Positions 1,096 to 30,696 of a DNA stretch of 32,000 nucleotides are shown piece after piece. The notes below the pieces were generated by a model that was not told where the DNA came from, did no database searches, and saw only the letters and a list, made by a program, of their open reading frames with translations. Each line of letters begins with the position of its first letter. The first letter of the stretch is position 1. Origin of the DNA: Candidatus Saccharimonadota bacterium (lineage in GTDB: Bacteria; Patescibacteriota; Gracilibacteria; BD1-5; UBA2023); assembly GCA_042852035.1 (NCBI GenBank), contig BAAFHK010000003.1, positions 1-32,000 of the forward strand. The letters are read 5' to 3'. The position numbers were made by a program, and so were the translations under genes.

Positions 1096-1596
1096 ATGAA
1101 TAATATTATTCGAATTTCTGAATCCCCATATCAGCTTGAGTTTAGCGTTGACCTCAATGTTTTTCCTCTCTCGATATGCCTACGTGCTGTTTACACGTTC
1201 CTCGATCGTGGATATTTCTTTTTTGAAAAAGATCAAACCAACAATAAACTCATAGTGAAAACAATCTCAAAAAATGACGCAAAGTGGTCCAGCGAAAAAC
1301 TCCTGTCTGACTTAAGCGATGAGCTGATTGCAACAACACTTCGTGCGAGCCTCGAAAAAGAAAATAAGACTATTCGCGATGCCATAGTTATGAAGGCTCT
1401 ATGGTGAATGGAAGACCACTCAAGAATTCCACAAGAAGAAAAGGAACAAAAAGAAGAATCACTTATCGACTTCACTCAGGATGTTGACCAACTTCTTAAA
1501 GAGATAGAAGAAATTACTGTTGAACCAAAAGAACCAGATATACGTATAAATGTTAACGGTGTCTTTCATGCAAAAAAAGCATTTAAAAATCGATAG
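1096..1596 (+). CDS. HxsD-like protein (copy 1)
   Basis: Track ORFs 1096..1407 and 1408..1596 share one frame and are joined by TGA (Gly) at 1405..1407, giving 166 aa. It is a clear paralog of 20933..21487: both share FLDRxYFFF, WSSE, SDELxATxLRxxLExxNKTIRxxIVMxAL and a C-terminal AKxxFxxR. The xLxDxxLR...IR pattern resembles the His-Xaa-Ser system protein HxsD (LLNDYxLRE family, from memory). Confidence 0.6.
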
Positions 1597-1756
1597 TTCA
1601 CTCTATCCTCCTTCTGCAATTGAAAAATGCATAGCACTCTTTGATGGCTATGATATTTCATTCCATGAAGAATCACAGACTCTTGAGATGCCTGACGATA
1701 ATCAACTCATTTTAGAGTTTTTTAATCATGCACTTCATCTTACCCTCGAAAAATAG
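1568..1756 (+). CDS. 62-aa conserved small protein of the Hxs-like module (copy 1)
   Basis: The ATG at 1568 lies inside the 3' end of the previous CDS (+1 frame, 29-nt overlap), and the stop is TAG 1754..1756. The product is MQKKHLKIDSSLYPPSAIEKCIALFDGYDISF...LILEFFNHALHLTLEK. A paralog at 20767..20961 has the same MQKK start, the same 29-nt overlap and a similar size. Confidence 0.5.
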   Translation: MQKKHLKIDSSLYPPSAIEKCIALFDGYDISFHEESQTLEMPDDNQLILEFFNHALHLTLEK

Positions 1757-1760
1757 CATC

Positions 1761-3221
1761 ATGACTCATCAAACCCTCACCCTCGATCTCGCAAAAAACC
1801 CACATAAGGATGTTGCATATTTTCGCTTTCGAAAGGAAGAGGATGGAAAATATCTCATGACAACTGATAATGGCCAGTTCACCATGCTCAATGGGGAAGA
1901 TTTTATAACACTACTCGAAACATGACGTGTCCCTCTCGAAGTGAAATATAAAGAATTATGTGAAAAGTGATTTATAAAAAGCGTCACGAACTATACTGAT
2001 GTTGAAACTCGCAATTATGCTCAAAGAAATAGCTTTCTGAATACTGGACCAGCTCTACATATGATTATTACTACCCTACGATGTAATCATAAGTGTAAGT
2101 ACTGTCATGCTGCCGTTGCTCCAATGACAGCAAAAGAGCTCGACATGAGCGTCGAAACGGCAAAGAAGGTCGTTGACACCATATTTTATACTACCAATCC
2201 TTCTATAACTATAGAATTCCAGTGAGGTGAATCACTCGTAAATTGGGATGTAGTAACTTTTGTCGTGGAATATTCCCAAAAAAAAGCAAAAATTCATAAT
2301 AAGCAGCTCTATCTCACTCTCGTGACAAACCTCTCCCTCATGACGGAGGAAAAATTACAATATCTAGTAAAAAATAGGGTTTGAGTCTGTACCTCTATGG
2401 ATGGCGATAAGGAAACTCATAACTGGCAGAGAACCTTTAAAGATGGAGACTCCTATGAGCTAGTAAACTATTGGATAAAACGAGCAAACGCTCTCTATAA
2501 GGAACACTGATCAACATATAGAGTTTGAGCTCTCCTTACGCTTACAAAGCCAGCGTTGGCTCATTATAAAAAAATTATTGACGCTTACGTCGATCTTTGA
2601 TTGTGATCTGTTTGACTCAGATGGCTTAATCCATACGGATTTGCAGCTGCTGAAAGGGAAAAATTTTATTTCGACACGGATGAATTTATCACATTTTTTC
2701 GCGATGCGATGGACTACATCATCGAAATTAATAAAAAATGATACCGCCTTCGAGAAATGCTTTCCTGAGTATACCTGACAAAAATACTCACCTGACAAGA
2801 TCCGAATTTTATGGATATCAGATCCCCGTCTTGACCAGCAATTGGCTGCCTCGCGTACAATTATGATGGATCCGTCTATGCTTCTGATGAATCTCGGATG
2901 CTTGCAAGAATGGGAATAAACGACTTCTGCCTGACACCTATGCTTGATTCCCCTGAAGAAACATACAAGGCCATCACCGAATCACCGGTCACAAATATCC
3001 TTATTCAGACAAGCACTCTAGATTGACTTCCTGGATATAACGATCACGTATATAAACCCTATATTGGAGCTGACACTCTTTTTTCTTTTACTCAATCGTG
3101 AAATCCATACTCTATTTTTTCAAAAGATGAAAGAAATGTGATGCAATTAGCACGACTCGATTATTTATTTGAAAAAATGTGAGATGAAACTATAATGGAA
3201 ATCTTTAGAAAATGGATTTAA
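1761..3221 (+). CDS. hxsB: HxsB-like radical SAM peptide maturase (copy 1)
   Basis: ATG 1761, TAA 3219..3221, 486 aa once many in-frame TGA are read as Gly. Motifs: LRCNHKCKYCHAA (Cx3Cx2C); IEFQ-G-GESLVNW with the first Gly encoded by TGA 2223..2225; VTNLSL; CTSMDGDKETHN; WLNPYGFA; AYNYDGSVYASDESRMLARMG. There is no complete Cx2Cx5Cx3C SPASM motif. It is highly similar to 19311..20759. The HxsB assignment is from memory of the family plus the HxsD-like and His-rich peptide neighbours. Confidence 0.75.
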
Positions 3222-3235
3222 TTACTCCCTACTAT

Positions 3236-3601
3236 ATGAAGAAAAAAATCCCACAACTCAAGAAAAAGCTTCATGGATTCATTACGAATGAAGACTGATC
3301 TATTCGACGTGAATCTATGGTGAAACTCTCCGTATGATGAGCTATGCTCCTCTGATGAGCTTCTGCTCTTCCTGATTCAGCAAATGCAGGACATTCAAAT
3401 GGGTATATTTCCTGCGCTCCAACTGGAAACACTCCAGCGATTAATGCAAGTATTGGTGTAAATACCTCCATAAATCTCAATGGTCACTTTAATGGAGTTT
3501 GATCATCCACACATGCCAATTACGGACACTGAAATTATAGTACCGCATGTTGGCAAAACATTCATGGATCTCACGGAAGCTGTGGATGATGATGTTGGTA
3601 A
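3236..3601 (+). CDS. precursor peptide A1 (HxsA-like; His/Asn/Gly/Ser-rich core with Cys-rich C-terminus)
   Basis: ATG 3236 is 14 nt after the hxsB-like stop, and the stop is TAA 3599..3601. 121 aa with 9 in-frame TGA by my count. Leader: MKKKIPQLKKKLHGFITNEDGSIRRESMVKLSVGGAMLLGGASALPDSANA. Core: GHSNGYISCAPTGNTPAINASIGVNTSINLNGHFNGVGSSTHANYGHGNYSTACWQNIHGSHGSCGGGCW. The leader and core motifs (VNTS, NGH[FY]N, GHGN) recur in 15444..15944. Confidence 0.6.
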
Positions 3602-3619
3602 TTGTTTTTCACTCTTTTT

Positions 3620-4585
3620 ATGAATCGATACCTCGCTCTTTTTCTATTTTTCGTTTCTCCGATAATCCTTCTCTCTTCATGTACATGAATTGGATTTAAA
3701 AGTGGGAAAGTAAGTTGGAGTGATGCTCAGAATTCCAGTACTACCTATTCTTCGAAGATTGGGTGACTCTTCAAGAAAGCTCTTGATGATCCACATACAA
3801 AACAAATTGCCGAGAGAATGTATACCGATTACTCTGCTGGGATTATTACTGAGAGTTTTTTTTATACCGCGCTTACTTACCTCAACGATAAACCATCACT
3901 TCCTTCATTTCTCGAGAACTACAAAAAAAATAAGTGAGTATTTTGAGAAGAATCTTCTGATACAGCATCGGATTATATCGGTGGATACATTTTTGCTTAT
4001 GCTTGAGTAAAGACTAGTGAATGTACGGAATACACAAATGCCCTAAGTGGAACATTTGTCGGGAAAAGAATTCATGAAGGATGCATCGATTCAACCCTTT
4101 TGTATAATGTACTGGGCGAAAAAAATGAAAAAACAATTGATATATTTAAAAAATCTTGAGATTTAAAAATTAACGAAAGCCTCTTTCGTTCTATTGCAAA
4201 AGGAGAAACAAAAGACTGTTGAAGTTGCTCCGTTATTATTGAATGAGCTGACCGAGAGAAAACATTTGGCGAGATATCAAATCTTCAAAAATCAGATTTA
4301 AAAGGAAAAACTGTTAATTTTAGCTTAAAGAATTTTAATATTCTTGCACTTAAGAGCGAAATTAAGCCAAACATGTCTGATAGGGAGAAGTTTGATCTCA
4401 CATACGATAGCTTCTTACTCTATAATGCCATTTATAAATCGGATACCTCGACATGTAAGAAGCTTCTAAATGAAACACTCTCAAGTACTTGCATAAAATA
4501 TATCGAAAAGGATCGTACTCAAAAACAAGAATATACAAATTATATTGAACCATATATCATCTACAGCTACCTCTACGAACTCTAA
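3620..4585 (+). CDS. lipoprotein, function unknown
   Basis: ATG 3620. The N-terminus MNRYLALFLFFVSPIILLSSC carries a lipobox (L-S-S-C). The frame stays open, reading TGA as Gly, through to the TAA at 4583..4585 and includes track ORF 4373..4585. 321 aa. The C-terminal part contains a C-x11-C pair (CKKLLNETLSSTC). Confidence 0.6.
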
Positions 4586-5732
4586 GAAATGTCTCTACAT
4601 TCATATTCCCTTTTGTCCGACAGGATGTAAGTTCTGCCATTTCTATCTGGATGAGAAAAAATCATCCGAGAATTATATTGGTTATCTAGAGAAGGAATTT
4701 CTCTTGCGGTTTTGAGATGAAAGGGTTTTTATCGATACGATTCACATAGGTTGATGAACTCCAAATATGCTATCACAAAAAGAATTGGAGAGTCTTTTTG
4801 TTTTCATTCATAAAAGGTTTTATTGATGGAGGGAGTTTTCCATGGAGCTTCACACCGATCTCCTGACATTTCCACAGCTCGATAGCCTAAAAAATGGCTG
4901 AGTTACTCGAATCTCCTTCTGAATTCAAACATTTGATGCTGAAATACTCAAACTTCATGCACGCGTCTCTAAGAATTATGAAAAACTCTGATCCTATATC
5001 GAATATGCGAAAGAAATCGGATTTGAGAAGATAAATTTTGATCTTATTTATGACCTTATCGGGGATTCTCCTGATAAAATTCGGAAAAATATCGAATTCG
5101 TAAAACAATATCAACCAACGAGCGTGAACTATTACTGACTCAGGCTCCTTACAGACTTTCTTCGGGAAAATCATACTATGAATTACAAACGAAGACTTGC
5201 CTATTACCTTCTCATCCGAGAAGAGCTTACGAAAATCTGATACATCCAGAAAAACGATGCTATTTACCATAAACCTTGATTCGAAAATGGAAGAAACTTC
5301 TTGTATGAAGATTATGTCTACTCTAAGTCCCATACAATCTATGGTTTAGGTGTTTCAGCAACGAGTGATAATAACGAAAGATTCGCGAAGAATGTTATCT
5401 CACTTGAGAAATACAAGAACCTTCTCGACAATAATGAGTCAACACAGGATTTCCATTTTAGCCTAAGTGAGAAACCTTATCTCCTCTATAGACTTTATTA
5501 TTGGCTACTTATGTATCCTACGATGAGTTTTGCAGACTATGAAGCTGAATACTGAACTGGAACTATTCTAAAAATAAAAGAAGATATGTCGCGCCTTGAG
5601 GGTGAGGGTCTTGTAAAGATTGAAGATAGCTCTATACGATTAACCCAGAAATGACTCTTCTACTTCATGGGTCTTGAAGATATTCTTATGAAGGACTATA
5701 CTTACGAGCTCTCACTTCTAAGAAAATTATAA
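4545..5732 (+). CDS. HemN/HemW-like radical SAM enzyme (coproporphyrinogen-III-oxidase family; possible class C radical SAM methyltransferase)
   Basis: CLYIHIPFCPTGCKFCHFY from 4590; IHIG-G-G-TP with TGA TGA at 4752..4757; RISFGIQTFD; INFDLIYDLIGDS; stop TAA 5730..5732. Track ORF 5301..5555 is an internal piece. The start is uncertain: the only canonical in-frame start upstream of the cluster motif is TTG 4545, which overlaps the previous CDS by 41 nt. Confidence 0.75.
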
Positions 5733-5774
5733 TGTGTCGTTTGATATTTTCTCTATTCGGATACAATAACTTTC

Positions 5775-6701
5775 ATGTGACCTTGAGATCTTCACATATT
5801 CTCTCTAAAAAAAGGAGCTATTATCAAAATCATTTACTGATGTAATCATAAATGTAGCTTTTGTCATGAAAAAGACAACATAGCATCGCTTGATTTTCGT
5901 TCCCTGAAGATTGAGAATCTCCAAGATATATATACATGGATACATTCAAATGGTTTTGATTATATTATACTATCTTGATGAGAGCCAACACTCCACCCTC
6001 ATTTAGTTGATTTTATAGTATTTTTTCAAGAAAAGGGCATTTATGTGGTAGTCGTCAATAATGGGACTCACCTTCATAAACACGATTTCTCAAAGGTAAA
6101 TAAAGATAAAATTACTTTTTATATATCTTATCACGGACAAAAGGAATATTACAATGATATTACAGGAAGTCATGACTTTGATATTGTAACTAAAAACATA
6201 AAAATGCTCGCTGAAAGATTTCCAGAAGTTATCCTTAGGTGTGTCCTAAATTATAAAAACCTTGAATCTATAGAAGATTTCACTCTTGAAGCTTTGAGCC
6301 TGAGCCCTTCGGTTTACCTAGAGTTTATCCTTCCTGAAGATTTGAAATATGAGCATGTAAATAAAGTCTCTATTCCTCTCAAAGAGTACCATGTTTTGGT
6401 TCTTAAATACCTCAAAAATAAACGAATACTTTTTGATGGATGAGCTGGGTGTTTCCATCCAAAGATATTCGAAATATTGGAAACACGTTTTGATCCATTA
6501 GTAAACACAATGATTGGACGAGTCAAAAAAGATAAAACTGGTCTCTTATTTAATATAAAGACTCAGGACTCTGAACATAATATCAAAAGCTTTTGGAAAA
6601 AATGCTCCCAATGCAAAAAGAAATCTTTTTGTCATTGATTTGATATTCTCTATTTGCAAAAATTTAGTAAAAATATCCCCATTGAGGATGGGAAAGTCTA
6701 A
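5775..6701 (+). CDS. radical SAM enzyme
   Basis: ATG 5775 gives MGPGDLHIFSLKKGAIIKIIYGCNHKCSFCHE (Cx3Cx2C). ILS-G-G-EPTLHP has both Gly encoded by TGA TGA. The C-terminus reads CSQCKKKSFCHG. Stop TAA 6699..6701, 308 aa. Track ORF 6045..6443 is an internal fragment in the same frame. Confidence 0.75.
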
Positions 6702-6933
6702 AGTCTAGAAATGCCCTTTCCTGATATGGAGAATATAGTTTGTGTTATCCATAAAATGACTTTACCATTTTTTAGGATTGAAAAAATAAATGACCAAAAG
6801 TCACATAATGAAATTTATAGAAAATTAATCTAGACCCAAAAAAGAAATAGTACTTATACTTGAAAGAAGATATATTTCGGTACAATCAAGGAAAATTAAG
6901 ACTAATTTAGAATCAAAATTGTGTTAAAATAAC

Positions 6934-7992
6934 ATGATCCCCAACCTCTTTTTCGCCATCAATGAAGACTGTAATCTCGATTGTACGTACTGTAACGTCA
7001 AAAAGTCGAAACAAAAACTCTCTCTAGAAAAAATCATAGAATGAGTCCTTTATTTTATTAAGTTTTTTCCGGAAGCTACAGGATACAACATCTTTTTTAC
7101 CTGAGGAGAACCCCTTCTCTCTTTTCGGGAAATTGTATCTGCTACTTACTTTTTGAAGAAACTTGAGAAAAAAATCGGAAGAAGTTTCTCGATTCATATA
7201 CCCACGAATGGCACACTCCTCACTGATGAACGTATAGCATTTTTTGTAAAAAATAATATTACCATTTCTTTAAGTATCGATAGTCTAGATATAGCGTATT
7301 CGGAACGTCCCTTTGTGTGAAAATCCCTAGTTCCATCCCAAAGTGTTATTGCAAAAATTTTCCCGAACATAAAAAAATACGCAAATATATTTCGAATAAA
7401 AATGGTTGCAACTCCTCAGGAAGTTCCATCTATAGAGCGGACATTCTGAGAATTCTACCAACTCTGATTCCGATTTATCAATATCCAACCTGCTCATGGA
7501 GTTTATTGGTCAAAGGAAGCTCAAGACAGCTATATCGAAACTCTACTTTCCCTCAGAAAGAATCTTGAAAATTTCCCCTGACTGGAATCAACAACCCTCA
7601 AAAAATCAGGTTCACATACTCACACCATGAAACGATGTGCAAAATGAATCTCTGAAATATGCATCGATAGCTATGGGAATATTCTTACCTGTGATGCCTT
7701 TCTTGCATATAGTCCCGATATAAGAAAGTCTTTTGCATTTGATTCACTTGAAAAACCTGGATTTGATAGAGAAAAATTTCGAAAAGGTTCCGACTGGAAA
7801 TACTGTCAGAATGAAATCATTGCGCATGTTGATGGAACTATAGATTATGATCTTACCCACTGCAAAACCTGTAATGAATCGATCTCTTGTACAAAGCTCT
7901 GTAATGCTGTCCCCATAAACGGTCAAGAACTCGATAGTACTATACTTCTATCAAACTTTGAATTATTTCGTAGAATAGATTCACTTATCTAA
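6934..7992 (+). CDS. radical SAM/SPASM-domain peptide-modifying enzyme
   Basis: ATG 6934 gives MIPNLFFAINEDCNLDCTYCN. FFT-G-GEPLLS has TGA at 7102..7104. Also IPTNGTLL and ISLSIDS. The C-terminal CAKGISEICIDSYGNILTCD plus CKTCNESISCTKLC (Cx2Cx5Cx3C) is a SPASM signature. Stop TAA 7990..7992, 352 aa. Track ORF 7317..7568 is an out-of-frame shadow. Confidence 0.8.
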
Positions 7993-7993
7993 T

Positions 7994-8980
7994 ATGGATT
8001 TTGCCTATTTTCAAGTTGTACGCATCTGTAACCAAAAATGCATCTTTTGTGCTCAACCATCGAATGGAAGAATTGAGTCGCTCAAAAAAATACAAGAAAG
8101 GATTGACTGGTATAAGGACCAATGATATGAGTGAATTATCCTCAACGGCGGAGAACCAACCCTTCATAAAGAGATTGTTAACATCATTAAGTATACCGCA
8201 CAAAAGTGAATATATTCAAAAATGATATCGAATGGGATAAATTTTTCAAATGCTGAACTTGCCAAGGCTTGTGTTGATGCCTGACTCAAGCAGATTCACA
8301 TATCATTCCACAGCTATATACCAGAAGTTGAAAATAACCTCATGAGATGAGATGTTTATGAAAAGCAGCTCAAATGACTCCTCAACATGCTTCTCCATAA
8401 AAACAAGATCGATGTCTGGGTGAATATTGTTATGAACCAGTACACAATACGTCATTTAGATAAAACTGTACTTTTTTTTCTCAAACTCTGAGTGCGAAAT
8501 TTTGTTATTAATAATCTAGAAGTCACTTGAGTATATCCAGAATATTTAGAGAAATTACTGTTTCGCTTGAAAGAAGCTGAAGAGCCCCTCAAAAAGGCAC
8601 TCCATCTTATCCGAAAATATGGAAACATCGCGCGCGTCTCGCGTATCCCCATGTGCTATCTACGATGATTTGAAGACTATTCACGAGATATCGAGTATTA
8701 TATCCTCCATACAAAAAAATATATTCATTACCTGAATGATGATAAACACCCCAAGCAATCCGATTTCGTAAGCGATGAAGTAAGTTGGCAAAGTGGTGAA
8801 GGATCGCCTACTTGAATGAGACGTTCTCGAACCGAAAATTGTAGTCATTGTGATCTTCGTCATATGTGCTCCTGATATGATCTGCTTGATTTTTTCCCAG
8901 GTGAAGACCCTCTTATTCGACAGAAAGTTGATAATGAAGAAATGCAGACTATACTGAACAACATCTTATGAAAAAAATAG
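7994..8980 (+). CDS. radical SAM enzyme, possibly HxsC-like (tandem paralog 1)
   Basis: ATG 7994 is one nt after the previous stop. Motifs: VRICNQKCIFCAQPSNG; ILNGGEPTLH; ISFHSY; C-terminal ENCSHCDLRHMCSG. Stop TAG 8978..8980, 328 aa. The CxxxCxFCAQP context recalls the CxxxCxMCSQPP of HxsC (from memory, unverified). Confidence 0.7.
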
Positions 8981-9924
8981 CATACCTTCAACTTCATAGA
9001 ATCTGCGATCAAGAGTGCGTTTTTTGTGCCCAACCCTCGAATGGATCAGTACTCGATTTCAAAGCCATAAAGAAACAAATAGATGCTTTTGTTCAAGATG
9101 GTTACTCAAAGGTTATTTTTTCTTGAGGAGAACCAAGTCTCAATAAAGATTTTTTTGAAGTTATTGCGTACGGTAAAAGTCTCGGCATCGAAATGACCAT
9201 TCTCTCAAATGGTCATCGATTTTCGGAGTATGATTTCGCAAAAAAATCCGTCGAATCATGACTTCTACAGTACCATATATCCCTCCATTCACATATATCA
9301 GATATACACGACGCCTTAGTAAAAAAACCATGATCCCTGAAACGATGTTTTCAAGCGCTTCATCATCTACTATCACTCTCTGCGCACATCACAATAAATA
9401 TAACGATTAATGCTTATAATGTATCCTATTTTGATAGGCTTATTAAAGCTATCCTCAAAGAATTCCCTTCTATTCATGGATTTATTATCAATAACCTTGA
9501 AACCTCTCAGATTCCTCGAGAGCATTATAGTGTTATAGCAAAACTTTCGGAGATAAAAAAAACCATTCCGAATACCCTTCAAATTTTAGAAAATTCTGGT
9601 AAAAAATTCCGTATAGAAAGGGTTCCTTTCTGCTATATTCGATGATACGAGCATCATTCTACCGATCTTGAGTACGTCATCGACGGGGAAGAAAAATTTC
9701 TTCACTATCTCTGAGAGTCAAGAGCGTCTCACAAGGTAAAAAAAGAAAACTACGTTCATAACTCCAAATATGGCGAATCATGCTCAGCATGTGATCTAAA
9801 ATGACTCTGTGCTGGTCAGGAAGGTCTCAATATCCACTACTTTCCCGAAGAGCTTATTCCACAGACCGTAAGTGAAGCTGAGAAAAAACAAATTATTCAA
9901 AAATTCTATGAATGTTATTGTTAA
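8968..9924 (+). CDS. radical SAM enzyme, possibly HxsC-like (tandem paralog 2)
   Basis: ATG 8968 overlaps the previous CDS by 13 nt. Motifs: HRICDQECVFCAQPSNG; IFS-G-GEPSL (first Gly is TGA); ISLHSH; ERVPFCYIRGYE (compare RIPMCYLRGFE in the paralog); SCSACDLKGLCAG. Stop TAA 9922..9924, 318 aa. Confidence 0.7.
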
Positions 9925-11434: not shown

Positions 11435-11449
11435 CTTAGTAATTGGGGT

Positions 11450-13090: not shown

Positions 13091-13145
13091 TGTAGAAGAA
13101 CTTACTGTGTGATTGTAAATTTTAAAAAAATCGTATAATCACACC

Positions 13146-15392
13146 ATGCCAAATCTTATTATTCGGGAAGAGGAATTCTCTTGAGTTCCTTCGACGATTA
13201 GTTTCCCCCAACTCGTTCTAATACTCAGTTTTCTCAAGAAAAGATGAGAGAATCAGATTCGAATCTGCTGAGTCCATCCACTCAAACATCCAGAAGTAAA
13301 GAAGATTGTTGAAGTAATTCGGCGAGGAGGATTCGATTCAACCTTTGTTCTTTCATCCGAAGAAATAAAACAATGCATATTTCCTGAGAATATCACTCAG
13401 GCTGAGATTATTGTTCACGATATCAACTCCCTTCGTGCTGAGGATATAAAAATCATTAAAAATACGACCGAAAATATCCTTCTTGAATTCGAAGTTCCAG
13501 CAGAAAAAGATACCTATAAAAAAATTATTAATTTCTGTGAAAGTACAGAAATTCGAGATATTCGATACCGAGTACATCATCCTGAATTTTGAGAGAAAGA
13601 GATTTCTACACTTCCAGAAGAAAGGATAAACTCTCTATTTGAACATATTGTTACTTATAAAAATTCCTTCAACATTTCCCTGAATTGTGGAATCAGTAGA
13701 GACTTATTTTCTTCATCCCAAAAAGAAAAATTGTCTCAAATTTCATACTTTTGGAATGAAGGATGCTCTGGGTATGTTTGAAGGTATGATATCTATCCAA
13801 ATGGCGAAATAAAAAAATGTAAGCCCCTTAAAAAACTCTATGGGATTGATGGACTCAGACTCGAAAATTTTGATTCTGAAAATGATCTCTTCTTGGCTAT
13901 TGATATTGAGGAAAGTACTTCAGGTTGCATTACAGAAAAGCCCTATCCAACAAAAGACGAAATGCCGTTCGATAATTATCCATGATTTTATGAAGAAGAT
14001 AATCGAAAAAATCGTCACGTCCTACGAACGACCAAGGAACTTATAGAAAAAAAGAATACCGTCGTTCTTCCACCAGAACTTGTTCGAGGAAAGTCTGTTC
14101 TTGATCTTGGATCTTGTATATGAGCGATGTGACAGTGGGCACTCTTTTATGGGGCCAAGTCATATACCTGAGTAGAAATTCAAGAATCGTATGCAAAAAC
14201 ATCCAGAAAACTCCTCGCTCACCACGGTGACAAAGTAAGAATCATACAAAGCAGTCTCGAGAAATTTCTTTCAACGAATACAGAAAAATTTGATATCGTA
14301 CTTTGTCTCTGAGTGATTTATGTTGCGATTGACTACTATTCGATACTGAGAAAAATCTCTGAAATATGTAACGATTTTACGGTTATCGAGTCATTCTACC
14401 CAGATAACAGACTCCTCGACACTAATGTACCATGAGTACTCTTTGTAAATGACCATGGGATTAATCTTTCGACTCATAATGCTTCTCTCATGTGAAGATG
14501 AAGTCATATTAGTCCAAGTGGCCTTGATTTTCTCATGTCATGACTCTGAATGACTTCAGAGTGAGACATCCTACAACCAATGAAGATCTATCAGTGAATC
14601 GATTCCTATAGAATCCGATGAGTATGAAGGTACATGAAACGTTATCATCAAGGGAAACAAAAAAGTCTCCCTTCTCTTTCTGAGAAACTCGAACATGGGA
14701 TTATTGATAGAATCAAGCCTTGGGAAATGATGCAAAACTGACTCGAACCTAAAGAAGTAAGTGGACCATGGGAATTTGGCAATAAAATTGCGCATAATTT
14801 TTTCGATCACGCAAAGAATCATATCCCAAATTATGAAAAAACCATAGATCTCTGCCTACAGATTGTCCAAAAATACCTCCCAAATAGAAGTTCAAGAATT
14901 CTTGAATTTTGAAGCGCAATTTGATATACCCTTGAGAAATTTGAAAGGGCAGGATACAGAAATATTCTTTGAATCGAAAAGTCAGAGTCGATGTATAACC
15001 AAAGTACAATGAAAGAACATGTACGAGTACGAGATACCTTAATAGATGAAGATGGTCTATTTTCTGCTATTTTAGCGAATTGGACACTTCATTTTATCGA
15101 GGAACGTGAACCTATCATACAATCATTTTACAATCATCTTGAAGTAGGATGAATCCTTATAATTACAGATAAGGTGTCCTCGTCTGGACTCTCACACGAA
15201 CTGTATATGGATTTTAAACGATCTAATTGACTTTCAGAAGATGAGATTCAAACAAAAACAAAGTCTCTTAAAGGAGTGCTCTTCCCATTCGATATTACTT
15301 GGTATTTTACTACCCTGAAGAAAATAGGATTCTCAAGCATCGATATCATCACGGCAAGTCCATCTTTTGTAACATTTCTCATACAGAAATAG
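13146..15392 (+). CDS. three-domain fusion: radical-SAM/SPASM-like domain lacking Cx3Cx2C + CmoB-like methyltransferase domain + CmoA-like (carboxy-SAM synthase family) domain
   Basis: ATG 13146, TAG 15390..15392, 748 aa in one frame. The N-terminal ~290 aa has radical-SAM-like strands (IRICGVHPLKHPEV..) and a twitch/SPASM-like NEGCSGYVGRYDIYPNGEIKKC, but no CxxxCxxC. The middle domain reads KSVLDLGSCI-G-AM-G (TGA at 14121 and 14130), ...FDIVLCLGVIYVA, compare CmoB TILDVGCGSGYH...FDTVFSMGVLYH. The C-terminal domain reads PWEFGNKIAHNFFDHAKNHIPNYEK...RILEF-G-SAI-G-YTL...NWTLHFIEE...GGILIITDK...[22 protein letters not shown], compare E. coli CmoA [24 protein letters not shown]...VYDLGCSLGAATL...NFTLQFLEP...GGALVLSEK...[22 protein letters not shown]. 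Confidence 0.65.
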
Positions 15393-15398
15393 AAATTC

Positions 15399-15426
15399 TT
15401 GATATTCTCATTTTTTAAAATATAAT
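15399..15426 (+). promoter_or_regulatory. near-consensus sigma70-type promoter directly upstream of precursor A2
   Basis: TTGATA (15399..15404), a 16-nt spacer, then TATAAT (15421..15426). The ATG at 15444 lies 18 nt downstream of the -10 box. The element sits in the 51-nt gap after the fusion CDS. Confidence 0.4.
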
Positions 15427-15443
15427 CCCCTAAATATTTCTAT

Positions 15444-15944
15444 ATGGAAAAAAAAGGAATCATCCCAAAGTTCAAAAAGAAACTTACCGCCTTCCTTACT
15501 GAAGAAGCCGGAAGTATTCGTAGAGAAGATATCCTCACCATCGGTGCGGCTACTCTTCTCGTAGCATGAGGACTTTCAGATCAGGCAAATGCCTATCTCA
15601 CTCTTGGTGACTGTCATACTAACCATAATAATTTCGTAAGTACATCAGATGGTTATACTCATTCGAGTGGATGGGTCCATTCAAACACGACTCCTGCGCC
15701 TCTCTGTATGCATGAGAACTACACAACCCCATCTGCCTGAGGACATGGAAATGCAGTAGCGGTAAATACCTCAACTGCCTGATCTGATAATAAAATCGTA
15801 AACTGACACTATAATCAGATTCCAAGCGCTGGAGCATCACACGTAAATCGTTGACATGCGAACGTAAACCCAGTATACTATGTTGCTCACAATGACGGAT
15901 ACGTTTATCATAGCAGTCATGCGAATCATTCGGATGGTGGTTAA
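15444..15944 (+). CDS. precursor peptide A2 (HxsA-like His-Xaa-Ser-rich peptide)
   Basis: ATG 15444, TAA 15942..15944, 166 aa with 5 in-frame TGA. Leader: MEKKGIIPKFKKKLTAFLTEEAGSIRREDILTIGAATLLVAGGLSDQANA, homologous to the A1 leader. The core has 13 His, including GYTHSSGWVHSNT and YVYHSSHANHSDGG (His-Ser-Ser / His-Xaa-Ser), and shares the GGHGNAVAVNTST and NGHYN motifs with A1. Confidence 0.65.
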
Positions 15945-15964
15945 GATTTTTAAGCTTTTATAAT

Positions 15965-16978
15965 ATGAAAGGAAGAAATATACTCATATTAATGATTTGA
16001 GTGGCTATTTTTGGGGTTTTTTTGTTTATAAACAACGAGGACAATTGAGCCTCTTCGTTATTTTCCACGAGAAAAAATCCTTTCTTAAACTGATCTTGAA
16101 ATAACCTTACTTCTGATACTACGAGCAAGGAGATTTTAAAAAATATTTATACTGCTTCAAAGTCAAACTCTGGCAGTCAAGATTCTTTTAGTTGAAGTCT
16201 TACCCAAGTAGAAATTATCTGAACCTTGCCTCAAGGTATTACTTCAGATATGAGTGGAAGTTGATTTTTTATATCAGGATCTACCGTCTATGGAGATAGA
16301 AGTCGTGTACTCGTACTCGAAGATGGTCGTATAATCATAGGATATGAGCCTTGGCAAGCAGCAAAAAACTGGAAAGAAATACAGGCACCAGAGTGATGGT
16401 GACTCGATAAAGACATTATACCTCGAAGATTCTATTATTATACCACTTGAATGACTGAGGAAAATCTCAAGAAGGTAGCTGAGAACGTACGATTGCGGTA
16501 TAATGTAATGCACAACCTCATTCATAATACGAATCAGGATGACATCCTCGTAAAACAAGGAAAGGAGTGCCTTACGCAAATAGACAAATCTTTTGAGTAC
16601 CCAAATACTCCTCAAGATGGATTTTTTAAGATATGTAAGCCCCCTGTAACGAATGAGAAACGTTTTAGCTCGGAGAAAGACCCTGCATTTGTGAGATACG
16701 CTTTTTCACTACTTTATAAAGCATCGCAAGAAAATGATATAAAAATCTGTGATAAGATTGGCGATATCTCATTTGATGTAAAAACCTATTCGAGTCAATT
16801 TAATCTTTGACAATACTCTCTTATATGTCGATGAATCATCGACTGAGGAGGACAAAAGATTCTTGATTACGTATATTGATTCACGGTTATAAGTGGCCTT
16901 TCGAACCGATGTGAACTCTATGCTGACGAAGAGAAAATTCAGAAAATTTGTGAATCAATTACAGATACCCTGAGGTAA
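15965..16978 (+). CDS. membrane-anchored hypothetical protein
   Basis: ATG 15965 gives MKGRNILILMIGVAIFGVFLFI (N-terminal TM/signal anchor). The frame stays open with TGA = Gly through track ORF 16451..16810 to TAA 16976..16978. 337 aa. No family recognised. Confidence 0.5.
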
Positions 16979-17011
16979 AAATTACTCCCTTCGTTATTAA
17001 CACGCGTCAAA

Positions 17012-18109
17012 ATGTCCACTATTCAAAGTTTCCCATACACTATTTGATACAACGATAACAAGGTATTAAATATTTATATAGAAAAATATAAGCAAATTCT
17101 CCACCATCTCGCCCAGAAGCACCTCGATAAAGACATCGCAGCTACTCCTGATATTCTCCAATTTTTATCAATTGGAGATATAGCATCAAACCTTTTATTA
17201 CTCGGGAAGCCTGAACCATGAAATGGCGCTGAGTATGCGAAGAAATTCTTAGAGAAAGAATGGGCGGAGTTTAAAATCGGTGGACTCCAAAATCTTTCGT
17301 CTGTCAAGTGATCAAAGATCCCAGGAACAAATATCCTTCTTACCAACAACGATTATACCCCAGGAGGCGTCGCGAGGATTAATCATCCAAGCCAAAAGGA
17401 TGGAGCTCAACTTACGGGATTTTCTTCGATTGAAGAAAAAGAGTGGCTTAACCTCTATGCTCAGGTTTTTGAAAAAATCCGTGAGATACATCCATGATTT
17501 TATACCGAATTAACAAGCGTCCTACAAAAAGTTGTCCCAATAGGAATATCTCGTGACTGTCATAACTCTGGATCATTCTCGGACTGTATCGGACACATAT
17601 ATATGAGCTACCCGATAGGGAATATTGAACCAGTGATTGCCGTACTTGAGGCAGTTATCCACGAGTACAATCATAATAAACTTCATATTATTATGATGTC
17701 TGATCCATTGATTCTCAACAGTGGTGAAGAAATATACTACTCTCCGTATAGGCCCGATGCGAGACACCTATATGGTATTTATGCGTGACTTCATGCTCTA
17801 TCCGCCGTTTTATATGTTATCTTTACTTGAATTCAAGAAGGCACTCTCACTTCACCAAGTAAGGACCTAATTCTGAAGTCGCTCCTCTACTTCATGAAAG
17901 ATGAGGCGTCAGTTCGGGTCCTAGAAAAATATGGGAAATTCTCCCCTCTCGGACAAGAGCTCCTCAATGAAATGAAAGCGGTACATAAGCATACCCTGGG
18001 AATTATAAAAGAGCTCCGATACGGTCATGAACTCTTAGAAGCTGCTTCTCGAGAATGCAGAAATCACTTCCTTGAAGCACAAAAAAATAACAAAAAAATC
18101 CTATACTAA
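17012..18109 (+). CDS. HExxH-motif domain protein (family of peptide-modifying, aKG-HExxH-type hydroxylase-like proteins)
   Basis: ATG 17012, TAA 18107..18109, 365 aa. The track fragments at 17280, 17603 and 17894 are mostly pieces of this gene or shadows of it. The core reads PVIAVLEAVIHEYNHNKLHIIMMSDPLILNSGEEIYYSPYRPDARHLYGIYAGLHALSAV. That is the HExxH..L...(~20)..SP.R.D.R...G pattern of the HEXXH motif domain found beside radical SAM/SPASM maturases (from memory). Confidence 0.65.
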
Positions 18110-19305
18110 AAGAAGAGCTTATCGAAAAGAGTGTAAGAATTATCAAGAAAAGCATACCACATATGTAGTGCTATATATGCTAAATTCTGCTGCATAACTA
18201 TCGTATAGAGAAATGCCATAAAAATAATATGTGCATATGGGTGATTATTATATACAATCATATACGTAGTAGTCTCATCCCTTCAGCACTTTTGAGCAAG
18301 TGCCTTTAGGAACCTTAAAGCATGTGAATCAACTGTCTTAGAGAAAACACTCTGAACTTCTTCTACCATACTATATCTCTCCTTTTCTTCGAAATCTGGT
18401 GCAAAAGTACCGATAATATGCTCTACATCAAGATTATCTCAAATCTTGATGTTTTTTATTGTTCTCGGAATTAAGTCATAACGACGAATAAATTTGGAGA
18501 ATAGATAAAGAAATCATGAAATGAGAGCCATAGTAGGAAGAGAATACTTTCCAAAGAAAAACAAATCGTAGATAAACCTATCAACTGACCGATAGTACAC
18601 AAAAAGGATAAGTATGACCGTTAGAGCTAGGATTAAGGTATAATTTACTCATTTTATTGCTGCTTTGCGAATATTCTTATTTATCAGTCGAAAAATACTC
18701 ACCACTGCAATGATCAGAGCTGGATAGAGAGGGCTTTTGGGGTCGCCTATAGAATAAAAATAGTTCACGAGTTTCTCACTGAACATCTGCAATAGACTGA
18801 ATGATAAAACAATAACGAGACTATATTGGATAATATTTAGTATCCATTCCTTTGTTGTTTTTTTCTTTACTTCATTTTTTGTATTCTTTTCCATTTTACT
18901 CGGATCGATTGCGTCTATAAATCTTGATTGGATAAGAGAAATAAGACATAAAATAACAATTGTGAAAACTGCAATATTTCCAGCAAAAGAAATATAACGT
19001 CCATCAAAAAGAAACATGGAGAGAACAATCGTATACTTTGCATCCCCTGCAGCCCATCAATTATAAAGATAGAGAAGAAATGAAACAACGAACGTAAACA
19101 AAATTGAAGTAAGGTAAAATCCCCACTGAAATCCACTAATAAAACCCAACTTTAGAGAAAGAGTGAGTAATATGGGCAACAAAAACAAGAGTGATAATAA
19201 AATGTAGTTTGGTATTACTTTAAACTTCCAATCTTTATAAACAAGAAAGAGGTTTAGAAAAAAGAATAAAGCCAGGAAAAACCAAAATGTAATCGAAAGG
19301 ATCAT
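18106..19305 (-). CDS. A24-family (prepilin-peptidase/CpaA-type) aspartic membrane protease with ~180-aa C-terminal extension
   Basis: The ATG at 19305 is 5 nt after the hxsB-like stop; an alternative TTG at 19320 would overlap it. Track pieces 19057..19320 and 18649..19017 share one frame and are joined by TGA. Motifs are VYKDWKFKVIPN (first Asp motif, D....IPN) and GWAAGDAKY (second Asp motif, G.GD.K). Reading TGA 18649..18651 as Gly extends the frame a further 181 codons without TAA or TAG to TAG 18106..18108, adding more TM segments and a soluble tail. My base indexing near 18650 and 18720 disagreed with the track by 1 nt, so I followed the track frame. Confidence 0.55.
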
Positions 19306-19310
19306 ACGAA

Positions 19311-20759
19311 TTAAAACCAAGAGCGAAATACTTTTTCGTTCTCTGGATCTTGTAATTTTTCAAAAATATAATCAAGCATAATTATCTGCATCTTATTTTT
19401 CTCATCTTTTGAAAAGTTCGAGAATATGGTCCCATACTGGGTGAAATTATAGAGTATATCTACTCCTATATAAGGTTTATAAACATGGTCATTATAACCT
19501 GGAAGACCATCAATAACCGATGATTCAAGAGCAGCTCGAGTTACGGTGCTTTGAGCCATAGCCTTCATAGTTTGATCCCCTGTTGCAAGCATTGGCGTAA
19601 GTAAGAAGTCTTCGATACCCATCCTTCCAAGCATACGAGCCTCATCACCAGCATAGACCTTTCCATCATAATTATAGGCAACTCATCCAACTGCAACTCA
19701 TGATGGAGAACGAATATCCATGAAGTTCCCATCGGCATTAAAGAATATCTTTGAGAGGTACACACTCGTTATCATTTCTCTTAATTTATAGCCCGATTTA
19801 TTAATCTCAATGACATAATCAAGTCATTTCTGGAAAAAATCAAGAAATTCAGTTGGGGTAAACTCCATACGTTCTCGTTCGACGGTAGCAAATCCATACG
19901 GATTAAGCCATCGAAATCAGATACTTCGCAGCCCAAGACTCACATACGTATCGATTATTTCTTTATATTGCTTAATACTCGTTTTCGTCCAGGTAGCAAG
20001 AGCTCCTATACTAAATGATTCTGGTGCTCCTCTGTATTTTATTTCCTCATTTATTCGTTTTATCCAGTAAGACACTGTATCGAAACTATCTCATTCTTTC
20101 CAAACTCTTTGTGCATTATGAACAAGCTTATCTCCGTCAAGAGACGTACATATCTCCACCTTATGATCCAAAAGCCATTTGAGTTTTTCTTCACTCATAA
20201 GCGTCAGATTCGATACGATACTCAGGAAAAGCTGTTTCGAAAGAGACTCTGCCTTTTGCCTAGCGTATTCAGTAATAAATTGCACCACCTCCCAATTGAC
20301 GAGAGATTCTCATCACTGAAACTCGATGGTTATACTTGGAGAGGAGCTAAAAAAAATGGTATCTACAACATTCTTTGCTGTCTCAAGAGTCATATCTAGT
20401 CATTTCGCTGTCATAGGTGCAACTGCAGCGTGGCAATATTCGCATTTATGATTGCAACGCAATGTTGTAACAATCATATGAAGCGTAGGACCATAGTAGA
20501 GAAATTTATTCTTTTCGAGGTACAGAGCAGCTAACTTTTCTTCATAGTCAGGAGTCTTATAGAAAAGTTTTTCTGTAAGTTCATCTTTTTTAGGTCAAGT
20601 AAGCTCCCCGGAGATAAATTTTTCAAAATCTCAAGAGGTGAGAAAAGAATATTTTCCGATATCATTCGTGATAAGTATATCTCAAGATTTCATTTTTTTA
20701 TAGCGAAAAAATGCTATCTCTTGGGAAAGATTCTCAATAGTTTTCAAAGTAAGACTCAT
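19311..20759 (-). CDS. hxsB: HxsB-like radical SAM peptide maturase (copy 2)
   Basis: ATG 20759, stop TAA at 19311..19313, 482 aa. It contains track pieces 19311..19634 and 20091..20288. Motifs: LRCNHKCEYCHAAVAPMTAK; IEFQGGESLVNWEVV; CTSLDGDKLVHN; WLNPYGFA; AYNYDGKVYAGDEARMLGRMG; GLPGYNDHVYKPYIG. It is collinear with 1761..3221 throughout but diverged at synonymous sites. Confidence 0.8.
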
Positions 20760-20766
20760 ATATTCC

Positions 20767-20961
20767 TTAGATTAATTTTTCATTATAAAGTGCGACACAG
20801 TAATTTGAAAATTCATCAAACAGTCATTGTGGATCCTCATCCTGAATTGAAATTCCATCTTGAATAGATTGAATATCAAAAGACTCAAATTCAGAGATTG
20901 CTTCTTCCAGAAGGGCTTGAGGATAGAAATTTTTATCGAGATTGAAATTTTTCTTTTGCAT
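20767..20961 (-). CDS. 64-aa conserved small protein of the Hxs-like module (copy 2)
   Basis: ATG 20961 lies inside the end of the HxsD-like CDS (29-nt overlap, other frame), and the stop TAA is at 20767..20769. The product MQKKNFNLDKNFYPQALLEEAISEFESFDIQS...GLFDEFSNYCVALYNEKLI is a paralog of 1568..1756. Confidence 0.5.
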
Positions 20962-21487
20962 TCTTAACTTTATTAGGATCTAACTGAGGGGTTTTCTTTG
21001 TTTGAGTTCCACTCATATCGACTTCAATTTCCTTCAAAATCCGATCTATCTCACCCTGATCAATCTTAAGCTCTGGATCATTTTCAATTTCTTTTAAGAT
21101 TTCATCAATATCCCTATCAAAGTCAATCTGTGGATTTGAATTCGAGATTTGATTTGGAACAAAATTTTGACTATCAACATACGAACCAAGAGCTCGCATA
21201 ACTATAGTTTCTCGAATCGTTTTATTATCTCTTTCAAGTTTATCACGAAGAAGGGTTGCAAGAAGTTCATCACTGTATTCAAGAGCAAACGCCTCACTAC
21301 TCCAACGTTGATTTTCTTTTGGATGAATTTGAACTAGGGTATTCTCCCCATCTCTCTTAAAAAAGAAATAGCATCGATCAAGAAACATATACGCCGCCTT
21401 CATGACGACTGCCTCTGAAAAGATTCCACCATCAATAAGAAGCTCTAGACGATTATTTTCCTGATTTTTTGAAAGAAAAGCAAACAT
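20933..21487 (-). CDS. HxsD-like protein (copy 2)
   Basis: This is an intact 184-aa ORF in the track with no internal TGA. MFAFLSKNQENNRLELLIDGGIFSEAVVMKAAYMFLDRCYFFF...WSSEAFALEYSDELLATLLRDKLERDNKTIRETIVMRAL. It is a paralog of 1096..1596. Confidence 0.65.
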   Translation of the reverse strand: MFAFLSKNQENNRLELLIDGGIFSEAVVMKAAYMFLDRCYFFFKRDGENTLVQIHPKENQRWSSEAFALEYSDELLATLLRDKLERDNKTIRETIVMRALGSYVDSQNFVPNQISNSNPQIDFDRDIDEILKEIENDPELKIDQGEIDRILKEIEVDMSGTQTKKTPQLDPNKVKNAKEKFQSR

Positions 21488-22529: not shown

Positions 22530-22677
22530 GCGATAATGGTACCCTCATAAAGAAGAAAATCAATCTGAATTAGGAGAGAATATATTGACTTTGTATAATA
22601 TTCATTCACCGAAATATTTAGAAAAGGAAATGCAAGGTTTCTCTCGACAGAAGTTACTTTTTTACCATAATGAAAGT

Positions 22678-30363: not shown

Positions 30364-30696
30364 ATGAGCTTTTCTCTAGAAAGAGAGAATGCCTTTAAAA
30401 GAAGCTATACATATATTCTTTTTTTGCAAGTGAAAATGCGGTCACCAAATGAAAATATTTACCTCATTCTCTTCTCAACCTTTGTTGAATGAGTAAAAAA
30501 AACATTCGAGAATATCACCCAACTTGTCTCATCTTGAAATTGAGATAGATCATGAATAATCTACAGCATATTTCATTACATATTTGTTGATTGACCAAAA
30601 AAATTTCGAAAAAATCCAACTGCTGTATCCATTGGAAGGGGTATATTTTCACCCTTCATATTTGTCTTTAAAAAATCGCAATGAAATTCAAAATAA
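30364..30696 (+). CDS. hypothetical small protein (weak call)
   Basis: ATG 30364 to TAA 30694..30696, 110 codons, open if six TGA are read as Gly. It overlaps the following pilin-like CDS by 16 nt. I recognised no motif. An open frame of this length is unusual in AT-rich DNA but is not proof of coding. Confidence 0.25.

Follow-up and report, generated by a model that had tools for sequence, protein, structure and literature searches.

A two-module radical SAM locus that probably represents a Gracilibacteria-wide variant of the His-Xaa-Ser maturation system

The canonical four-gene His-Xaa-Ser (HXS) system is an antiphage system that blocks the entry of phage DNA by means of an exported protein, HxsA, matured by radical S-adenosylmethionine (radical SAM) enzymes (Li et al. 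2026, PMC13128918). HxsB, HxsC and HxsD are needed for N-terminal processing of HxsA and for a +8 Da change, and 99.7% of the reported HXS systems are found in Pseudomonadota (PMC13128918). Here we describe a block of genes at positions 1096-21487 of a 32,000-nt stretch (hereafter the window) of contig BAAFHK010000003.1, from an assembly filed as Candidatus Saccharimonadota bacterium and placed in the Gracilibacteria by GTDB. An earlier note, made from this sequence alone, had called the block an Hxs-like cluster and had stated that Hxs systems have no known product, a statement now outdated by the work just cited. We put at roughly 70% the probability that the block belongs, as an enlarged form with two modules, to a variant of the HXS maturation system found across the Gracilibacteria, and its gene content suggests that it most likely matures two exported His-rich proteins.

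Under the standard bacterial code (table 11) the whole window yields 14 open reading frames (ORFs) of at least 100 aa, and long ORFs tile the region once TGA is read as sense. TGA sits at the invariant Gly of the radical SAM motif GGEP in HxsB1, HxsB2, HxsC-like 2, the SPASM enzyme and radical SAM enzyme 3 (rSAM3), all described below, as well as at the invariant Gly of the HemN motif GGGTP and of methyltransferase motif I, and no other Gly codon is as frequent in the block (187 TGA vs. 133 GGA). Judged by these positions and this usage, the translation table of the window is code 25, with TGA read as Gly. Scans with hidden Markov models (HMMs; Pfam, and NCBIfam with its curated cut-offs) were run on the code-25 translations; together with motif reads they recovered in place every gene that had been listed from the letters alone, including seven radical SAM enzymes (CxxxCxxC in 7/7), the doubled D/small/B/A modules and the tailoring genes. 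Neighbouring genes are spaced by -53 to +55 nt, the sole exception being a 232-nt gap at 6702-6933, in agreement with a single tight block of about 20 kb. Rfam and tRNA scans of the window gave no match.

The assignment to the Hxs type draws on HxsB and HxsD. HxsB1 (1728..3221, plus strand, 497 aa, CNHKCKYC at residue 119) and HxsB2 (19311..20759, minus strand, 482 aa) score 446.7 and 447.2 bits against TIGR03978 (cut-off 370) and match the full length of the model, which bears out the reading of the block as an Hxs-type, radical-SAM-rich peptide or protein maturation cluster. They are 56% identical to each other, and HxsB2 is 75% identical to its counterpart in a related locus, L003. Each is accompanied by an HxsD. 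HxsD2 (20933..21487, minus strand, 184 aa, free of TGA) passes TIGR03976 with 65.2 bits (cut-off 50), and it is through this copy that the block belongs to the HxsD family; HxsD1 (1096..1596, plus strand, 166 aa) falls just below at 47.0 bits (E 2.5e-12). The two are 40% identical, and HxsD1 is 90% identical to its counterpart in L085. An exact-sequence look-up of HxsD2 returned matches in contigs of 1-3 kb only. Between HxsD and HxsB in each module lies a small protein, of 62 aa on the left (1568..1756, plus strand) and of 64 aa on the right (20767..20961, minus strand), the two being 32% identical (E 2e-11). This family was found between HxsD and HxsB in 63 loci; a profile-profile comparison with HxsD (hhalign) gave a probability of 44% (E 2.4e-4, 57 columns), so that the small protein is possibly a mini-HxsD paralogue.

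Each module also contains one candidate precursor. Precursor A1 (3212..3601, plus strand, probable start 3236, 121 aa) consists of a leader, KKKLHGFITNEDGSIRRE, a hydrophobic stretch and a His/Asn-rich core with the C-terminus IHGSHGSCGGGCW, and is 90% identical to its L085 counterpart. Precursor A2 (15444..15944, plus strand, 166 aa) has orthologues in L003 and L004 that are 67-72% identical and keep every His position, and it is identical to the NCBI protein HHAS10_09780 from a metagenome-assembled genome named 'Candidatus Altimarinota'. Taxid 363464, in the Patescibacteria group, bears the phylum name Altimarinota, which we take to denote the lineage formerly called Gracilibacteria, the name that stands on nearly all related genome records. 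A1 and A2 are 34% identical (E 1.7e-14), and they are the only two ORFs of the window with the leader motif. Both match just the leader part of the HxsA3 model, at 23.6 bits for A1 and 41.7 for A2 (cut-off 65), and neither is placed in a family by the curated HxsA, HxsA3 and HxsA4 models. HxS content is limited to HGSHGS in A1 and to scattered, degenerate HSS, HAN and HSD in A2.

The 72 precursors that we collected from Hxs loci define the family more clearly. They share a Lys-rich leader, F[LI][TS]DESGKI[TS]KKDALG, followed by a short hydrophobic segment with an AxA-like site at its end; their cores are variable yet share an (I/V)VNGH(Y/F)(S/N)..P motif, and their C-termini carry an (HGS)2-17 tail that closes with RW, QW, GGWC or ASY. 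The HxsA3 and HxsA4 models matched ten family representatives, all below cut-offs. A conserved leader and a variable core beside maturases are typical of a peptide made by the ribosome and modified after translation (RiPP), and to that extent the label 'RiPP-type' given earlier stands, but it was an inference and the cores do not fit it well: they are 80-120 aa long and conserved between orthologues, which makes the products resemble small modified proteins rather than a natural product of short-peptide type.

Several further observations concern these precursors. In A1, TGA occupies 9 of 129 codons, four of them in the hydrophobic export segment, and the gene would be truncated by any standard-code gene caller or expression host; in public databases some relatives have been translated with Trp at the TGA positions (e.g., P0005). 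In three species an autoprocessing domain of the intein-like Pretoxin-HINT type is joined to the C-terminus of a precursor with leader and His-rich core (L039 11469-12380, L040 11460-12386 and L058 6538-7476; PF07591 36.8 bits in L039), with a second, ordinary precursor close by. A twin-arginine signal was considered and rejected, the SIRRE sequence being confined to the window's clade and relatives carrying KITKKD.

Set beside canonical HXS, the block has in common an HxsB above the equivalog cut-off, an HxsD, and the position of HxsD ahead of HxsB; radical SAM cores of HxsC type with a C-terminal CxxCx5C; and His-rich precursors with an export-like N-terminal region and, in the family, C-terminal HxS repeats and then Trp. 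The HxsA-like ORF of the Kiritimatiellae locus L084, adjacent to full-length HxsB and HxsC, ends ...SHRSGW. Unlike the canonical set, the window has an extra conserved protein of 62-64 aa, two modules, five additional radical SAM enzymes and a tailoring set; its HxsC-like enzymes are without the N-terminal domain of about 95 aa, its precursors are without a peptidoglycan-binding domain, and its host is a code-25 Gracilibacterium rather than a member of the Pseudomonadota. Among the rare Hxs models the leaders of A1, A2 and 10 tested relatives align to positions 2-50 (up to 2-79) of HxsA3 (NF038309), the HGS tails align to HxsA4 (NF038313), and the HxsC-like enzymes match HxsC4 (NF038332), but the scores stay below cut-offs throughout (HxsA3 24-45 vs. 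65, HxsA4 17-54 vs. 55, HxsC4 49-80 vs. 500). Since all of them fall short of the curated thresholds, the Gracilibacteria set is, by this measure, an uncurated sister group of the rare Hxs variants.

Nor is the grouping of these genes a chance one, since the block is syntenic in three independent metagenomic contigs at 42-96% amino-acid identity. L085 corresponds to the window from HxsD1 through the pyridoxal phosphate (PLP) enzyme at 78-96% identity, save for the phosphotransferase and PLP genes (58-63%); L003 corresponds from the SPASM gene through g371 at 42-75% and holds the phosphotransferase, PLP enzyme, methyltransferase fusion, A2, anchored protein, HExxH enzyme, A24 peptidase, HxsB2, small protein 2 and HxsD2; L004 runs from the phosphotransferase through the anchored protein mem337. 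No counterpart of the left module stands directly upstream of the SPASM gene in L003, and the window accordingly resembles a cluster of L003 type to which a module (D1-small1-B1-A1-lipoprotein-HemN-rSAM3) was added. The 232-nt gap falls at the junction of this presumed addition.

A wider scan, in which an HxsB alignment was run against one genome per species, returned 80 loci at 40-58% identity, nearly all from Gracilibacteria and including four complete genomes of 1.0-1.5 Mb; the Hxs core was present in every complete genome returned. This core consists, in order, of HxsD (71 loci), the small protein (63), HxsB (83) and the precursor (62). It is followed by a variable run of radical SAM genes, with a median of 5 and a maximum of 8 per 21-kb locus among 39 full-length loci, and by assorted tailoring genes: HExxH enzymes in 9 loci, A24 peptidases in 10, a radical SAM family that we call R14 in 15, HemN-like enzymes in 16, and elsewhere GFO/IDH-type oxidoreductases, AsnB-like enzymes, a 2-oxoglutarate (2OG) oxygenase, a double radical SAM protein, an aminoglycoside phosphotransferase (APH)-type kinase and a DegT-type PLP aminotransferase. 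The window is indeed much larger than the described four-gene set, as had been noted, but its size is not peculiar to it, loci with multiple radical SAM genes being the rule in Gracilibacteria. The remark that some 20 kb is notable for a small genome also holds, at 1.4-2% of the complete genomes of relatives. Within the data searched, the window's own additions are the second module and a trio of phosphotransferase, PLP enzyme and pseudo-radical-SAM methyltransferase, these two being confined to its close relatives L003, L004 and L085, together with the A24 peptidase.

The position of the locus is conserved. In about 24 of the loci L005-L084 (e.g., L040, L048, L060, L075) it begins immediately after atpC, with which the F-type ATP synthase operon ends, while in the window's clade it follows the g371 block (17 loci); in another clade (L020, L021, L026, L030, L034, L042) the upstream genes are four or five type IV pilin-like genes in tandem, which encode N_methyl and fibrinogen-C domains. 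The gene g371 itself (371 aa, 22585-23700 in the window, divergent from HxsD) gave no match in Pfam or NCBIfam. The HxsD2 arm of the window occupies the ancestral g371 position, and the other genes of the cluster have the opposite orientation to that in relatives with the layout g371< D s B A ... C C R14 Hx. Full-text literature searches (Gracilibacteria with radical SAM; Hxs gene names) found no description of a Gracilibacteria Hxs variant. An HxsB/HxsD-based system, simpler in form than that of the window, is thus widespread in a recoded-stop lineage of the candidate phyla radiation, beyond the Pseudomonadota, being present in about 80 Gracilibacteria species. This version has a conserved small protein as fifth component and a membrane-anchored partner that is likewise conserved, and its radical SAM and tailoring genes vary strongly between loci.

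As for the role of the products, phage defence is the only analogy with an experimental footing: matured His-rich surface proteins might bind incoming phage DNA at the envelope, with variable tailoring the mark of an arms race, a reading that we regard as possible and hold only tentatively. It is favoured by the block to phage DNA entry that canonical HXS exerts via radical SAM-matured, exported HxsA (PMC13128918), by the HxsB, HxsD, His-rich repeats and export signal held in common with it, by accessory enzyme sets that are hypervariable between species, and by phosphotransferase and PLP genes that evolve fast (58-63% identity in L085, against 88-96% for their neighbours). Against it, the core sits at conserved chromosomal positions (after atpC in about 24 loci, after g371 in 17) and in every complete genome returned, which fits a vertically inherited trait better than a patchy defence island; the precursors have no peptidoglycan-binding domain; and PADLOC, whose library predates HXS, gave generic viperin-type radical SAM matches only. 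To our knowledge there is also no evidence for a classical periplasm in Gracilibacteria, which counts against an envelope barrier of this kind.

A lineage-core role, for example in binding metals or contacting the host, would agree with the fixed chromosomal position and wide presence no less well than defence agrees with the variable tailoring. Modified (HGS)n and His-rich proteins could serve as binders of metal ions or, for these episymbiotic or predatory bacteria, as mediators of contact with host cells; conserved His residues and (HGS)2-17 tails at the C-terminus are what is typically seen in metal ligands, the system is lineage-wide at fixed loci, and genes for type IV pilin arrays, a His-rich HSP20 and MgtC and FecR-domain proteins lie in its neighbourhood. 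This argument is drawn purely from composition and context, however; no metal-transport genes lie inside the cluster, and simple metal binding needs no heavy radical SAM tailoring. We consider a housekeeping surface or metal role doubtful.

The tailoring complement begins with the five radical SAM enzymes other than HxsB. Two tandem enzymes, HxsC-like 1 (7994..8980, plus strand, 328 aa) and HxsC-like 2 (8968..9924, plus strand, 318 aa), are 34% identical and score 83.2 and 104.5 bits against TIGR03977 (cut-off 267.9); HxsC-like 1 was compared with the canonical HxsC of L084 and is without its N-terminal domain of about 95 aa. The enzyme that had been described as a plain radical SAM protein, rSAM3 (5775..6701, plus strand; Radical_SAM 75 bits, HxsC4 49, HxsC 45.1), is a radical SAM enzyme but not a plain one: its C-terminal CSQCKKKSFC, a motif in common with HxsC-like 1 and 2, marks it as the third HxsC-like enzyme of the window. 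The C-terminal CxxCx5C occurs in four enzymes, these three and the SPASM enzyme, and also in the canonical HxsC of L084. By the HxsC family model none of the three qualifies (83.2, 104.5 and 45.1 bits vs. 267.9, N-terminal domain absent), and the HxsC and HxsA labels given earlier stand as likenesses without reaching the curated family cut-offs, while HxsB, HxsD2 and TIGR04267 lie above theirs. The SPASM enzyme (6934..7992, plus strand) is PapB-like (102 bits, cut-off 340) with a Cys-rich C-terminus and matches cyclophane, ranthipeptide and sactipeptide maturases more weakly. The HemN-like enzyme (4545..5732, plus strand; Radical_SAM 71 bits) is of class C type, its best NCBIfam matches being the STM4012 family, HemN, HemW and HutW at 117-141 bits, all below cut-offs.

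A further modification enzyme has a clear family. The protein at 17012..18109 (plus strand) is an alpha-ketoglutarate (aKG)-HExxH-type peptide hydroxylase with the motif HEYNH, which passes TIGR04267 (IPR026337) with 62.1 bits (cut-off 40). Such enzymes hydroxylate peptides at His, Asp, Gln and Asn (PMC12636437), and radical SAM RiPP pathways that contain them (ChlBH-type triceptides, biphenomycin BpmH and PflC/PosC; PMC12636437) resemble the block in their leader-bearing precursors, SPASM enzymes and HExxH proteins passing TIGR04267. They differ in that the maturase of the window is HxsB/HxsD and not a three-residue cyclophane-forming enzyme (3-CyFE), and in that the window's cores are far longer and preceded by an internal signal-like segment.

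These likenesses bring in a third explanation, that leader-guided enzymes make small secreted bioactive peptides, for example bacteriocins, from A1 and A2. A conserved leader with a variable core would suit a classical natural product, and the tailoring set is typical of one (SPASM, HemN-like, aKG-HExxH and methyltransferase enzymes, with AsnB-like enzymes and 2OG oxygenases in other loci). It is nonetheless unlikely: the cores of 80-120 aa are 67-90% conserved between orthologues, Pfam scans of the block found no ABC exporter, peptidase-C39 or immunity gene, and the precursors carry the internal hydrophobic segment and have a canonical relative that matures as a protein effector.

The most unusual tailoring genes form the trio between HxsC-like 2 and A2. 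The first (9872..11434, plus strand; Pfam PPDK_N and PEP-utilizers) encodes an ATP-grasp phosphotransferase with a phospho-His swivel domain, of RPH/PpsA-like type, carrying an LSH...AREIGIP motif. Its best matches in the PDB, 5fbs and 5hv1, which we take to be rifampin phosphotransferase, align over the His domain only. Since it has PPDK_N and the mobile His domain and no TIM barrel for phosphoenolpyruvate (PEP)/pyruvate binding, it resembles enzymes of the rifampin phosphotransferase/PigC type and is not a PEP synthase or pyruvate phosphate dikinase; its top equivalog score is 75 against a cut-off of 883.

The second protein of the trio (11450..13090, plus strand, 546 aa) had no sequence match in Pfam, NCBIfam or the PDB, and five homologue clusters besides itself were found among 5.8 billion proteins. 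The guess that it is PLP-enzyme-like is upheld at fold level. An AlphaFold2 (AF2) model with a mean confidence (pLDDT) of 64.6 gave 335 Foldseek matches in the PDB at E<=1e-3, and the top 50 listed were all PLP enzymes, among the matches being BesB, MppP, acetylornithine aminotransferase, cystathionine and methionine gamma-lyases, SepSecS and CndF, the TM-scores being low (0.2-0.4) owing to the medium quality of the model. In an alignment of homologues Lys361 (SSSLTKY) and Asp325 are invariant, as expected of the Schiff-base Lys and the Asp that binds the pyridine nitrogen in fold-type-I enzymes. The protein is thus predicted to be a divergent fold-type-I PLP-dependent enzyme. Homologues with 36-43% identity (L086 647-2305, L087 1386-2675) lie by genes for the anaerobic ribonucleotide reductase nrdD and ribosomal protein L25.

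The third member (13146..15392, plus strand, 748 aa) had been described as a CmoB/CmoA fusion. The CmoA-like part is borne out by PDB matches of the C-terminal methyltransferase (4gek and 1im8, E 1e-12), which align over nearly the full length of CmoA, the synthase of carboxy-S-adenosylmethionine (Cx-SAM); the likeness to CmoB is weak (25 bits), and the protein has three parts in reality. Residues 1-265 match the R14 radical SAM family (306 aa; E 1e-25 to 1e-27), with CxxxCxxC removed by an 11-aa deletion and GGEP lost too, and Pfam recognizes two methyltransferase domains, the middle one generic. By its lost motifs the N-terminal region is a dead radical SAM domain and probably serves as a substrate-binding module. 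R14 itself occurs in 15 Hxs loci, usually beside HExxH, and it is this degenerate copy of a cluster enzyme that ties the fusion to the Hxs system. Against TIGR00740 the C-terminal domain scores 66.5 bits (equivalog cut-off 193), which does not place it in the CmoA family. The distance of the trio from its described relatives (75 vs. 883 bits for the phosphotransferase, 66 vs. 193 for CmoA) is matched by a different setting, inside a peptide-maturation cluster and, unlike in CmoA, with the methyltransferase fused to a dead radical SAM domain.

Four loci carry the trio (the window, L003, L004 and L085), and it is absent from all 80 species loci. Compared with the L085 orthologues (L085 8452-11632), identity is 58% for the phosphotransferase and 63% for the PLP enzyme, while the flanking genes are 78-96% identical, and this pair (9872-13090) also comprises the most diverged genes in L003 (42%). 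Because the pair diverges far more than the flanking cluster genes, fast evolution or recombination is suggested. Kinase and PLP chemistries recur in other Hxs loci, since non-homologous APH-type kinases and DegT-type PLP enzymes are found there.

Beyond the trio lies a probable A24-type aspartic peptidase (18106..19320, minus strand, probable start 19305; Pfam PF01478), with extra transmembrane and soluble domains and without the N-terminal methyltransferase domain. Its Pfam score is 26.4 against a gathering cut-off of 26.5, and both Asp motifs are present, YKDWKFKVIPN (D...IPN) and AAGDAKY (GDxK), as they are in 9 of 10 family members. Members occur in 10 Hxs loci. In 8 of the 80 species loci an A24 gene and HxsB are no more than 10 kb apart, compared with about 1.4 expected by chance, and in five loci the A24 gene is convergent with the HExxH gene. 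In the window the 3' ends of these two convergent genes overlap by 4 nt (18106-18109), and there is therefore no space for a terminator. A prepilin-type (class III) leader cut was considered, given that A1 and A2 read (G/A)↓F..(N/E)E, with Glu at +5, near an A24 peptidase. Such a cut is unlikely, as the -1 residue is Gly in about half of the 72 precursors and N, K or S in most A24-bearing loci, and the hydrophobic stretch begins about 17 residues downstream; we retain it as a low-probability idea.

That the trio, the A24 peptidase or both are unrelated passengers, for example a small-molecule pathway and a housekeeping prepilin peptidase, would agree with the restriction of the trio to four loci (0/80 species loci), with PLP-enzyme homologues beside nrdD elsewhere and with a pilin-like substrate gene at 30681-31910, but it is quite improbable given that Hxs genes flank the trio on both sides with gaps of at most 55 nt, that the trio stays between HxsC-like 2 and A2 in L003 and L004, that the methyltransferase fusion holds a domain derived from a cluster-typical radical SAM enzyme, and that A24 is enriched near HxsB (8 loci vs. 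about 1.4 expected).

A number of observations weigh against an HXS-derived maturation system. The gene order D-small-B-A-...-C-C departs from the canonical D-B-C-A, and the HxsC-like (83-104 vs. 268) and HxsA-like (24-42 vs. 65) proteins fail the curated equivalog cut-offs. HxsB1 and HxsB2 are without CxxCx5C and, read from the sequence, without any C-terminal CxxC comparable to the second-cluster cysteines that were mutated in E. coli HxsB; HxsB2 has 4 Cys in total. The HxS/HxN motifs of A2 are all degenerate, no Pfam domain, including a peptidoglycan-binding domain, was found in A1 or A2 by Pfam scan, and in only about half of the family does Gly precede the leader Phe. The occurrence of PLP-enzyme homologues outside Hxs loci, beside nrdD, points in the same direction. 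PLP enzymes normally require a free amine or carbonyl, and for that reason a small molecule might instead be the substrate of the phosphotransferase/PLP pair. Likewise, the cluster A24 could be a housekeeping prepilin peptidase because of the genuine pilin-like gene at 30681-31910.

One further element recurs across the loci. The gene after the precursor encodes an N-terminally membrane-anchored protein of 210-340 aa in about 45 of 62 loci, a pattern that two window genes fit: the lipoprotein at 3602..4585 (plus strand, probable start 3620), with the lipobox LLSSC read from the sequence and no Pfam or NCBIfam match, and mem337 (15965..16978, plus strand, 337 aa), likewise read from the sequence, which follows A2 in L003 and L004. 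In phmmer comparisons these anchored proteins form several small groups and not one family; an iterated profile reaches 19 of the 45, including mem337 and a membrane-anchored Cys-repeat protein (21537..22529, minus strand, 330 aa) that adjoins HxsD in the window, L001, L003 and L008, and this profile may drift on the transmembrane helix. We therefore list the Cys-repeat protein as a possible extra member on weak evidence.

Under the HXS-variant reading, HxsB together with HxsD and the mini-protein would recognize, in the cytoplasm, the Lys-rich leader (KKKLxxF[LI]TxExGSI) of each precursor, and would act at sites of His-Xaa-Ser/Asn type, for instance the (I/V)NGH(Y/F)(S/N) motif common to the family and the HxS repeats at the C-terminus. 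The HxsC-like, SPASM and HemN-like enzymes may add more radical cross-links or C-methylations, the HExxH enzyme may hydroxylate beta-carbons of His, Asn or Asp, and the phosphotransferase, PLP enzyme and methyltransferases may add lineage-specific decoration. Export would proceed via the hydrophobic segment downstream of the leader, and A24, signal peptidase or both would cut off the leader, one candidate position being the ...ANA site. Once exported, the products would work with the membrane-anchored protein encoded directly after each precursor, and by analogy the mature His-rich proteins would sit in the envelope. The chemistry in this scheme is taken from homology to canonical HXS (PMC13128918) and to aKG-HExxH enzymes (PMC12636437).

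A bolder and rather unlikely extension is that Gracilibacteria carry a vertically inherited, Hxs-derived radical SAM 'factory', often placed next to the ATP synthase genes, in which accessory enzymes reshuffled between species make heavily and differently modified His-rich surface proteins central to episymbiotic or predatory life or to phage resistance, the trio of the window installing a modification not yet seen on a ribosomal product. Candidates for its chemistry are a phosphate-activated beta-replacement or transamination, followed by methylation or carboxymethylation. More generally, the Hxs variants offer a natural panel for working out the chemistry of HxsB and HxsC and raise the question of why genomes of 1-1.5 Mb devote 1-2% of their DNA to this locus. 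New modifications may be sought with the phosphotransferase/PLP pair, the methyltransferase guided by a pseudo-radical-SAM domain and the HINT-fused precursors.

The flanks of the block are of a different character. On the left, positions 1 to about 960 (minus strand) hold the 5' part of a gene for a secreted protein with signal peptide MKKITFLGILLSLSLAISTSDTHA, divergent from HxsD1 and running off the left end of the window; the protein consists of repeats of about 92 aa (DKTSPVISANNTSAAWRNANISITLSASDATSG...), immunoglobulin-like by eye, and the corresponding 276-nt DNA repeats are 98% identical. On the right, an HSP20 with a very His-rich N-terminal region (HGNHHHHHEDHDD...) is encoded at 23784-24302, and a 410-aa type IV pilin-like protein with the class III signal KHG↓FTLFE (N_methyl) at 30681-31910. 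Between these two lie MgtC/DUF4010, FecR-domain and sigma-70 region 4/HARE-HTH genes.

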